From sequence record CP054387.1: 64,000 bases of DNA; one strand, given 5' to 3'. Positions 34,651 through 35,076 of this stretch are shown in pieces (within the stretch, counting starts at the first letter, position 1; each line of letters begins with the position of its first letter). The stretch is from Escherichia phage CMS-2020a. Position numbers and translations under genes: made by a program. Under the pieces are notes generated by a model. It saw only the letters and a list, made by a program, of their open reading frames with translations. It did no database searches and had not been told where the DNA came from.

Positions 34651-35040
34651 CTACATCACAGGACAATCATCAAACTCGCCACTTCTTGCGTCGTTGATAA
34701 TGTGAGTGATCACACCAAACACGGCATTGCTGCCCGTGCATCCATCGTCATCCTTTGGCAATGCTTCCTTCTTACCGGTTCTTAAATCCTCCAGATGCTG
34801 ACGTGGAGACTTCCGGTATCTTTTTACGCGATATTCCCCATCCAGAGCGCATACAAGCAGAGAACCATCAACCGGGGTAAGTGAGGAATCAACCACCAGC
34901 AATGCACCCTGTAATATTCCCTCACGATGATGACTATCAGCTGCTCTCATGAAGTAGGTCGCTGAAGGATGTCTAATTATCTGCTGATCAAGAGAAATAC
35001 GGCTCTCAGCATAATCCGCCGCAGGAGAAGGGAAGCCCAT
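34651..35040 (-). CDS. UmuD'-like protein (pre-truncated UmuD homolog, peptidase S24 fold)
   Basis: Begins MGFPSPAADYAESRI...HPSATYF, aligning with UmuD after its autocleavage site; Ser and Lys positions retained; LexA box upstream. Confidence 0.65.
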   Translation of the reverse strand: MGFPSPAADYAESRISLDQQIIRHPSATYFMRAADSHHREGILQGALLVVDSSLTPVDGSLLVCALDGEYRVKRYRKSPRQHLEDLRTGKKEALPKDDDGCTGSNAVFGVITHIINDARSGEFDDCPVM

Positions 35041-35056
35041 AGCGTTTTGCCCTCAA

Positions 35057-35076
35057 TACTGTTCATTTACACAGTA
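35057..35076. promoter_or_regulatory. LexA operator (SOS box)
   Basis: TACTGTTCATTTACACAGTA fits CTGT-N8-ACAG with both conserved arms, 17 nt upstream of the UmuD'-like ATG. Confidence 0.7.

Follow-up and report, generated by a model that had tools for sequence, protein, structure and literature searches.

A predicted LexA-regulated, P1-type humD cassette on an SSU5-like phage-plasmid of Escherichia coli

Introduction

In E. coli, the polymerase V (Pol V) subunit UmuD' (structures 1umu, 1ay9 and 1i4v; 8gmt for the subunit within Pol V) is generated when a 139-aa precursor, whose gene is transcribed together with umuC, undergoes RecA-stimulated cleavage. Mobile elements also carry UmuD homologues under SOS control, among them MucA, ImpA and RumA of conjugative plasmids and ICEs, and these are full-length cleavable precursors encoded in operons with mucB, impB and rumB. 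The HumD product of phage P1 is already in the UmuD' form (PMC7092418), and humD has been called a LexA-regulated SOS gene (PMC9603915). The P1 GenBank record AF234172 states that HumD 'functionally complements E. coli UmuD''. It also marks a 'LexA binding site in the regulatory region of lxr and humD'. In CRISPRi experiments, P1 humD is non-essential for lytic growth.

McLenigan et al. reportedly found in 1999 that HumD forms dimers, interacts with UmuC and with RecA filaments, and makes recA430 lexA(Def) cells mutable again, the effect being best with high-copy vectors; native P1 HumD expression is likewise said to be low or poor. As P1 HumD reportedly complements well only from high-copy plasmids, the size of its physiological effect is uncertain. 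The gene family, the pre-truncated form, the LexA box and the function are already known: the P1 biology was described in the 1990s, and a curated model and a RefSeq name exist.

Comparable UmuD-like proteins are encoded by the linear phage-plasmids N15 (gp26) and phiKO2 (gp23) and by the lambdoid phage HK140 (gp28). They are 66–73% identical to the protein studied here, have the same truncated N-terminus and C-terminal tail, and are encoded behind promoters that contain a LexA box. The phiKO2 and HK140 genes are divergent from dinI, and that of HK140 is the second gene of an operon.

Here, we compare with these systems a humD-type locus found in a 64-kb stretch of DNA (CP054387.1, recorded as Escherichia phage CMS-2020a; the whole stretch analyzed is called the window below). 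The locus had been flagged in an initial annotation, made from the sequence alone, as an SOS-regulated UmuD'-like gene.

Results

The humD gene and its product

The locus consists of the following features, given in window coordinates:

34619..34639, minus strand: intrinsic terminator hairpin with a U-tract, right after the humD stop (9-bp stem, 7 GC pairs, TTTTT)
34651..35040, minus strand: humD coding sequence (129 aa plus stop, ATG start; protein begins MGFPSPAADYAESRISLDQQIIRHPSATYF)
35050..35054, minus strand: Shine–Dalgarno-like GAGGG, 9–10 nt before the humD ATG
35057..35076, read on the minus strand: predicted LexA operator (SOS box) TACTGTGTAAATGAACAGTA, both half-sites perfect
35073..35078, minus strand: putative –10 element TATACT, read by eye, extending into the left arm of the LexA box
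35098..35103, minus strand: putative –35 element TTGCAC, 19 nt from the –10 element and at the same position in P1
35174..35198, minus strand: hairpin with a 10-bp stem, after the upstream toprim-domain gene (stop at 35213)

The initial annotation had aligned a 129-aa protein beginning GFPSPAADY with the N-terminus of processed UmuD', and our comparisons bear this out. The encoded N-terminus is MGFPSPAADY, and removal of the methionine would leave GFPSPAADY, equivalent to UmuD' from Gly25 onward. Codons in frame 5' of the ATG read TAT TGA GGG CAA AAC GCT; the TGA, at 35053..35055 and overlapping the GAGGG motif, lies five codons before the start and excludes a longer UmuD-like N-terminus. When the protein was searched with HMMER against solved structures, the top matches were UmuD' chains (1umu, E = 5e-23), with the alignment running from UmuD' residue 1.

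Family models placed the protein within HumD. It scored 218.7 bits against the NCBIfam equivalog model NF051876, 'HumD family translesion DNA polymerase' (cut-off 120), and aligned over its full length, residues 1–129 covering profile positions 1–129 of 129. The broader Pfam model Peptidase_S24 (PF00717) gave 38.1 bits against a cut-off of 23.3, and the best PHROGs match was phrog_811, 'UmuD-like protein' (E = 6e-54). The score for the UmuD model PRK10276 was 87.8 bits, below the cut-off of 110, and the traits of UmuD proper were absent: the ORF has no N-terminal arm and the plasmid has no umuC. The LexA model TIGR00498 reached 27.9 bits against a cut-off of 110.95 and aligned only over the S24 part (LexA residues 91–167); a length of 129 aa leaves no room for an HTH domain, and the protein is no member of the LexA or CI-type repressors. 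The match to NF051876 and the identity to P1 and P7 HumD identify a full-length member of the HumD family.

The Ser and Lys positions of the S24 fold, which the initial annotation had listed as kept, could be assigned by the HMMER alignment with 1umu and 8gmt_B. Ser36 ('AADSH') falls under the nucleophile Ser60 of UmuD and Lys73 ('RVKRY') under Lys97, so that both columns are kept between UmuD' and the window protein; the K97A substitution in the mutant chain 8gmt_B confirmed the Lys column. In place of GDSM, the protein has the degenerate motif A-DSH, with one residue deleted. Lys73 is invariant across the alignment of HumD-type proteins, whereas the Ser column, occupied by Ser in the window protein, is Thr in the more distant members from N15, phiKO2, HK140 and Ecl_MII_003. 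Judged by these alignments, the protein has the S24 fold with the columns of the Ser–Lys dyad. It has no substrate arm in cis that would need cleavage.

The window protein is ~44% identical to E. coli UmuD', with which it shares the S24 domain, and, compared with UmuD, has four extra residues inserted near residue 100 and a C-terminus longer by 10 residues. The C-terminal tail, NDARSGEFDDCPVM, is common to all HumD-type proteins in the family alignment and missing from UmuD. This tail, within residues 116–129, is acidic and contains Cys, and like the short insertion it sets the HumD type apart from UmuD. To our knowledge, no function has been assigned to the HumD C-terminal tail.

Closer relatives were found among phages and phage-plasmids. 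The window protein is 99.2% identical to the homologue in the phage-plasmid Cyrano, 90.7–91.5% identical to HumD of P1 and P7 (85% at the nucleotide level), which are likewise 129 aa long and start MGFPSPAADY, and 64–73% identical to the homologues of N15, phiKO2, HK140 and Ecl_MII_003. Length and start are the same in P1, P7, D6, N15, phiKO2 and others. Compared with P1 humD, the window gene has dS of 0.77 and dN of 0.046, and the resulting dN/dS of 0.06 indicates that humD is under strong purifying selection and is no relic. RefSeq labels homologues as 'S24 family peptidase' (older records) or 'HumD family translesion DNA polymerase' (newer records, identical copies included).

By these sequence comparisons, the relation to P1 HumD is one of orthology and goes beyond mere resemblance. 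The idea of a pre-activated UmuD' analogue like that of P1 thus gained support from the score for NF051876, the 90.7–91.5% identity and the homologous box annotated in P1. By analogy, the 91% identity suggests that the ability of P1 HumD to substitute for UmuD' and to bind UmuC and RecA filaments may extend to the window protein.

Operator and promoter

The canonical LexA operator noticed at first sight proved to be unique in the window. The gap between box and ATG is 16 nt, the last base of the box lying 17 nt upstream of the A, as the initial annotation had it; the coordinates and sequence given there proved right as well. The corresponding distance is 19 nt in P1, and both umuD and the window humD have a LexA box 16–19 nt before the ATG. 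The sequence TACTGTGTAAATGAACAGTA shares 16 of 20 positions with the ideal palindrome; for the E. coli umuDC operator, located 19 nt before umuD, the figure is 18 of 20. The 64-kb window contains a single exact TACTGT-N8-ACAGTA, and 100 shuffles that preserved its dinucleotides yielded none. For the looser core CTGT-N8-ACAG, two occurrences were observed against 0.94 expected. We rejected the second of these (28127..28142, CTGTTTCACGGAACAG) as a LexA site: it is intracoding, its flanks and spacer are unlike those of LexA sites, and its presence is in line with chance expectation.

A further LexA-like sequence lies outside the window, at 5265..5284 of the related plasmid NZ_CP022085.2, and is the sole other candidate on that plasmid. 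This sequence, ACCTGTATAAGTAACCAGTA, agrees with the ideal palindrome at 14 of 20 positions, has an imperfect right half-site and is located ~30 nt upstream of a tyrosine recombinase gene.

Conservation of the operator extends well beyond the window. The box differs from the homologous box annotated in P1 by one spacer base (TACTGTGTAAATGAACAGTA vs. TACTGTATAAATGAACAGTA), and the phiKO2 record also annotates a LexA site at its humD-type gene. Among IMG/VR loci whose encoded protein is at least 91% identical, a CTG-N10-CAG box was found 16–19 nt before the ATG in 80 of 80, in 14 variants in which the half-sites are kept and the spacer varies. LexA boxes were present in seven of seven divergent phage homologues. 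A near-consensus box is kept in P1, Cyrano, N15, phiKO2, Ecl_MII_003 and BTP1 despite otherwise unalignable flanks; in HK140, the box belongs to the promoter of an operon of two genes that diverges from dinI. SSU5-like plasmids themselves have two unrelated upstream types, a window type and a Cyrano type, each with a perfect box at 16 nt. This conservation, together with published RNA-seq of a 99%-identical sister gene (see below), supports LexA control of humD in the window, and LexA would be expected to bind the box at 35057..35076.

The two upstream types accompany humD genes that are 99% identical, yet the sequence upstream of –17 is unrelated between the window type, which resembles P1, and the Cyrano type, which has the box TACTGTATGTGTATACAGTA and TTCAAA-17-TATACT (Cyrano 3900..4000 compared with window 35057..35100). 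The sharing of humD between them places a recombination breakpoint at or within the operator.

In the window, the 19-nt spacing between the putative –35 and –10 elements is suboptimal and suggests a weak promoter; a scan for the sigma-70 consensus before humD returned no promoter at the scanner thresholds. The TTGCAC element and the Shine–Dalgarno region are shared with P1, while Cyrano has its TTCAAA-17-TATACT at the same place.

Cassette boundaries

The hairpin at 34619..34639 is a strong one, with a predicted stability of –18.6 kcal/mol (z = –5.7). It separates humD from the convergent apbC, whose stop is at 34613, and is a terminator that probably works in both directions. With this terminator directly after its stop and a convergent gene next to it, humD stands alone. 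On the other side, the hairpin at 35174..35198 (–16.2 kcal/mol, z = –5.0) has a weak T-tract; it may terminate read-through from the toprim-domain gene and so insulate humD as its own transcription unit.

Similarity to P1 is confined to 34652..35087 (85.4% at the nucleotide level), beginning 11 nt before the box and ending at the stop codon, and the similarity of the adjacent apbC–metG segment to K-12 spans 31321..34609. Box and gene thus form a 436-bp cassette with a hairpin on either side, in a variable region beside the captured apbC–metG. The window and P1 genes are alike in standing alone, without umuC, on an extrachromosomal prophage. They differ in the carrier, which is an SSU5-like siphovirus phage-plasmid for the window and a P1-like myovirus for P1, and in their neighbors, which are the toprim gene and apbC–metG in the former and lxr and phd-doc in the latter.

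We considered the toprim-domain gene (35213..35776) as a counterpart of P1 lxr and rejected it, finding no similarity (BLASTP E = 5.5). An apparent co-occurrence in a crude classification of genomic contexts was an artifact, the matches being elsewhere in the loci.

Carrier element

Judged by its sequence, the window belongs in its entirety to an SSU5-like phage-plasmid of E. coli. About 1 kb around humD matches ~109-kb plasmids of E. coli O104:H4 (p09EL50, NC_018651.1; NZ_CP022085.2) with 100% identity, and the window as a whole aligns to positions 30774..95446 of NZ_CP022085.2 with 99.6–99.9% identity and one 672-bp indel. This 109,945-bp plasmid has tail, capsid, portal and terminase genes, ParB and RepB, and also encodes DnaE, RecA, a DnaB-like helicase, a ligase, RNase HI, NrdAB, ThyA and DfrA51. 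A search for a umuC partner found no Y-family polymerase annotated on the 109,945-bp plasmid, and the best tblastn match to UmuC had an E of 6.7. Against phage records, window positions 20001..45000 gave the following matches:

PhiR41_1: 97% identity, 91% coverage
Cyrano: 95% identity, 78% coverage
Salmonella phage SSU5: 82% identity, 22% coverage

Cyrano is an SSU5-like phage-plasmid that forms virions and shows 39-fold induction by ciprofloxacin (PMC9928086). We dismissed the view of the element as an island beside chromosomal metG/apbC, as metG and apbC are cargo of the phage-plasmid. Neither is humD a core SSU5 gene: the syntenic variable region of SSU5 is without humD, apbC and metG, also by tblastn. 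The gene is accessory cargo of an E. coli sub-lineage of SSU5-like elements.

The indel relative to NZ_CP022085.2 is a lack of 672 bp at ~37757..38066 of the window and corresponds to about one copy of a tandemly duplicated segment with a DUF551 gene. Plasmid p09EL50 (109,274 bp) shows a difference of similar size, having 671 bp less than NZ_CP022085.2.

Prevalence

Using the 437-bp cassette as query and requiring coverage of at least 80%, we found it in 677 of 5,426 complete E. coli genomes (~12%). The matches fell on plasmids at 697 places, and the 84 places listed as chromosomal were partial matches only. Carriers are almost always phage-plasmids of ~90–115 kb and divide by identity to the query: ~193 records with at least 95% identity are SSU5-like plasmids of ~106–114 kb, and ~546 records with 80–90% identity are P1-like plasmids of ~89–100 kb. 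In PLSDB, ~650 plasmids have a gene whose product shows 80% identity or more, and a further ~1,000 conjugative plasmids have MucA-type homologues with ~48% identity.

Expression of the sister gene

The 99%-identical humD of Cyrano has been profiled by RNA-seq in E. coli LF82 (GSE154648; PMC9928086, tables S1 and S4). The values are log2(fpkm+5), with two replicates per condition:

CYRAN_98 (humD): LB 7.44/6.94; medium 1 h 9.56/9.89, medium 6 h 9.14/9.03; macrophage 1 h 11.37/11.30, macrophage 6 h 12.12/12.31
umuD (chromosomal): LB 5.2/5.5; macrophage 6 h 8.8/8.9
umuC: LB 3.4; macrophage 6 h 6.4
sulA: LB 7.1/7.2; macrophage 6 h 9.9
CYRAN_99 (apbC, the neighbor): LB about 6.5–6.7; macrophage 6 h 5.9

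LF82 meets genotoxic stress and mounts an SOS response in macrophages (PMC9928086), and according to the tables of the same study Cyrano humD rises ~30-fold there, in parallel with umuDC and sulA. A gene under LexA control would be expected to behave in this way. Cyrano humD is also ~4-fold up in cell-culture medium free of macrophages, where umuD and sulA show no rise, so LexA is probably not the sole input, or growth phase matters. The neighboring apbC stays flat, as does the Cyrano recA across the conditions. These data concern the Cyrano copy, whose sequence upstream of –17 differs from that of the window.

Discussion

We consider it very probable that the locus is a self-contained, LexA-repressed humD cassette, composed of an operator, a weak promoter, the 129-aa gene and a terminator, which is carried as cargo by an SSU5-like phage-plasmid and supplies a UmuD' form that joins host UmuC in a polymerase V-like enzyme. 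The gene, the operator and its conservation, the family membership, the absence of umuC and the purifying selection come from the present analysis, and the complementation of UmuD' and the binding of UmuC and RecA from the work of others on P1 HumD. In an undamaged cell, host LexA would occupy the operator overlapping the –10 region and keep humD transcription low. DNA damage would activate RecA and cause LexA to cleave itself, and humD would then be transcribed alongside the host SOS regulon. The first residue of HumD would be the one that RecA-mediated cleavage exposes in UmuD; the protein would be born in the UmuD' shape and RecA-dependent processing would therefore be unneeded. HumD would dimerize and assemble with host UmuC and RecA-ATP into a translesion polymerase resembling polymerase V, bypassing the slow activation of UmuD to UmuD'. 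Damaged DNA, whether of the host, the plasmid or the phage, would be replicated better, with mutagenesis as the cost. By analogy with P1, the data support the earlier suggestion that the element can modulate host translesion synthesis.

Such a mobile element would supply an activated accessory subunit of the error-prone Pol V without the RecA-dependent cleavage that delays mutagenesis. Its carriers include the outbreak lineage O104:H4 and the Crohn's-associated strain LF82, in which humD is strongly induced in macrophages, and the cassette could add to the stress-induced supply of mutations and to the survival of the plasmid-prophage. The sole departure from the textbook case of P1 is the location on an SSU5-like phage-plasmid of E. 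coli. What we add is modest: a carrier that is SSU5-like rather than P1-like, a sharply bounded cassette of 436 bp, and a sister copy co-induced with the SOS regulon in public RNA-seq.

More far-reaching roles can be imagined for the SSU5-like copies. HumD could act through its acidic tail on the replisome or RecA of the element and serve as a damage-triggered switch of plasmid or phage replication; in a milder form, the early supply of pre-activated UmuD' could remove the timing checkpoint set by RecA* cleavage and make carriers measurably more mutable under antibiotics or in macrophages. We regard this as unlikely, while noting that the element encodes DnaE, RecA and a DnaB-like helicase and that humD in LF82 is ~10-fold above host umuD intracellularly.

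Also unlikely, in our view, is a role as a 'polymerase manager' or modulator of RecA filaments that slows replication, restrains recombination or tunes prophage induction after damage, be it through the host Pol III alpha, beta or epsilon subunit or through the DnaE and RecA that the element encodes. Subunits of Pol III are known partners of both UmuD and UmuD', and UmuD'2C is an inhibitor of recombination by RecA. The parent plasmid also provides a setting for such a role, having DnaE, RecA, a DnaB-like helicase and a ligase of its own and no UmuC, and HumD-type proteins have the conserved acidic tail (NDARSGEFDDCPVM) that UmuD is without. However, humD also occurs in P1, N15 and phiKO2 and in integrated phages of lambdoid or P22-like type that are without such a replication set, and its function cannot therefore depend on the DnaE or RecA of the element. 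P1 HumD is, moreover, recorded as complementing UmuD', and in LF82 the recA of the element does not rise along with humD.

A decoy function is very improbable. HumD would in that case be anti-mutagenic, forming mixed dimers with host UmuD or UmuD' or titrating UmuC, thereby dampening Pol V and sparing the genome of the element. The transcript level in LF82 within macrophages, ~10-fold above host umuD (12.2 vs. 8.9), could allow HumD to out-compete UmuD', and the dimer-forming S24 domain is conserved; yet the 91%-identical P1 HumD is annotated as restoring mutagenesis, not as inhibiting it, and no residue pattern in the window protein points to lost UmuC binding.

That the ORF is a decaying umuD or S24-repressor fragment with the LexA box as a functionless leftover, as its being shorter than UmuD, its degenerate GDSM motif and the older RefSeq label of merely 'S24 family peptidase' might suggest, is effectively refuted already by the conservation data, given the end-to-end match to the HumD model, the dN/dS of 0.06, the same length and start in P1, P7, D6, N15, phiKO2 and others and the cassette's presence in 677 of 5,426 complete E. 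coli genomes, to which are added the strong and regulated transcription of the LF82 gene and, against a repressor origin, the lack of an HTH domain and a TIGR00498 score of 27.9 against 110.95.

Apart from the humD cassette, the element carries other cargo. The genes metG (33355 down to 31322, minus strand) and apbC/mrp (33513..34613, plus strand) have the same divergent layout as on the E. coli chromosome. Relative to K-12, they are 88.9% identical at the nucleotide level, and the proteins are 99.0% (MetG) and 94.0% (ApbC) identical, which suggests, as far as sequence divergence can tell, an old capture or a capture from another species under strong purifying selection. The apbC copy in LF82 is expressed 9-fold above the prophage background (PMC9928086).

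A nucleotide-metabolism and replication set occupies window positions 45100..58200 and consists of a TerB-like gene, rnhA, an N6-adenine methyltransferase, a 3'-5' exonuclease, dfrA51 (51494..51970, minus strand; a trimethoprim-resistant DHFR), a thymidylate synthase gene (52382..53485, minus strand) and nrdB/nrdA. Beyond the window, NZ_CP022085.2 has its own recA, dnaE, dnaB-like helicase and DNA ligase genes as well as four tRNA genes.
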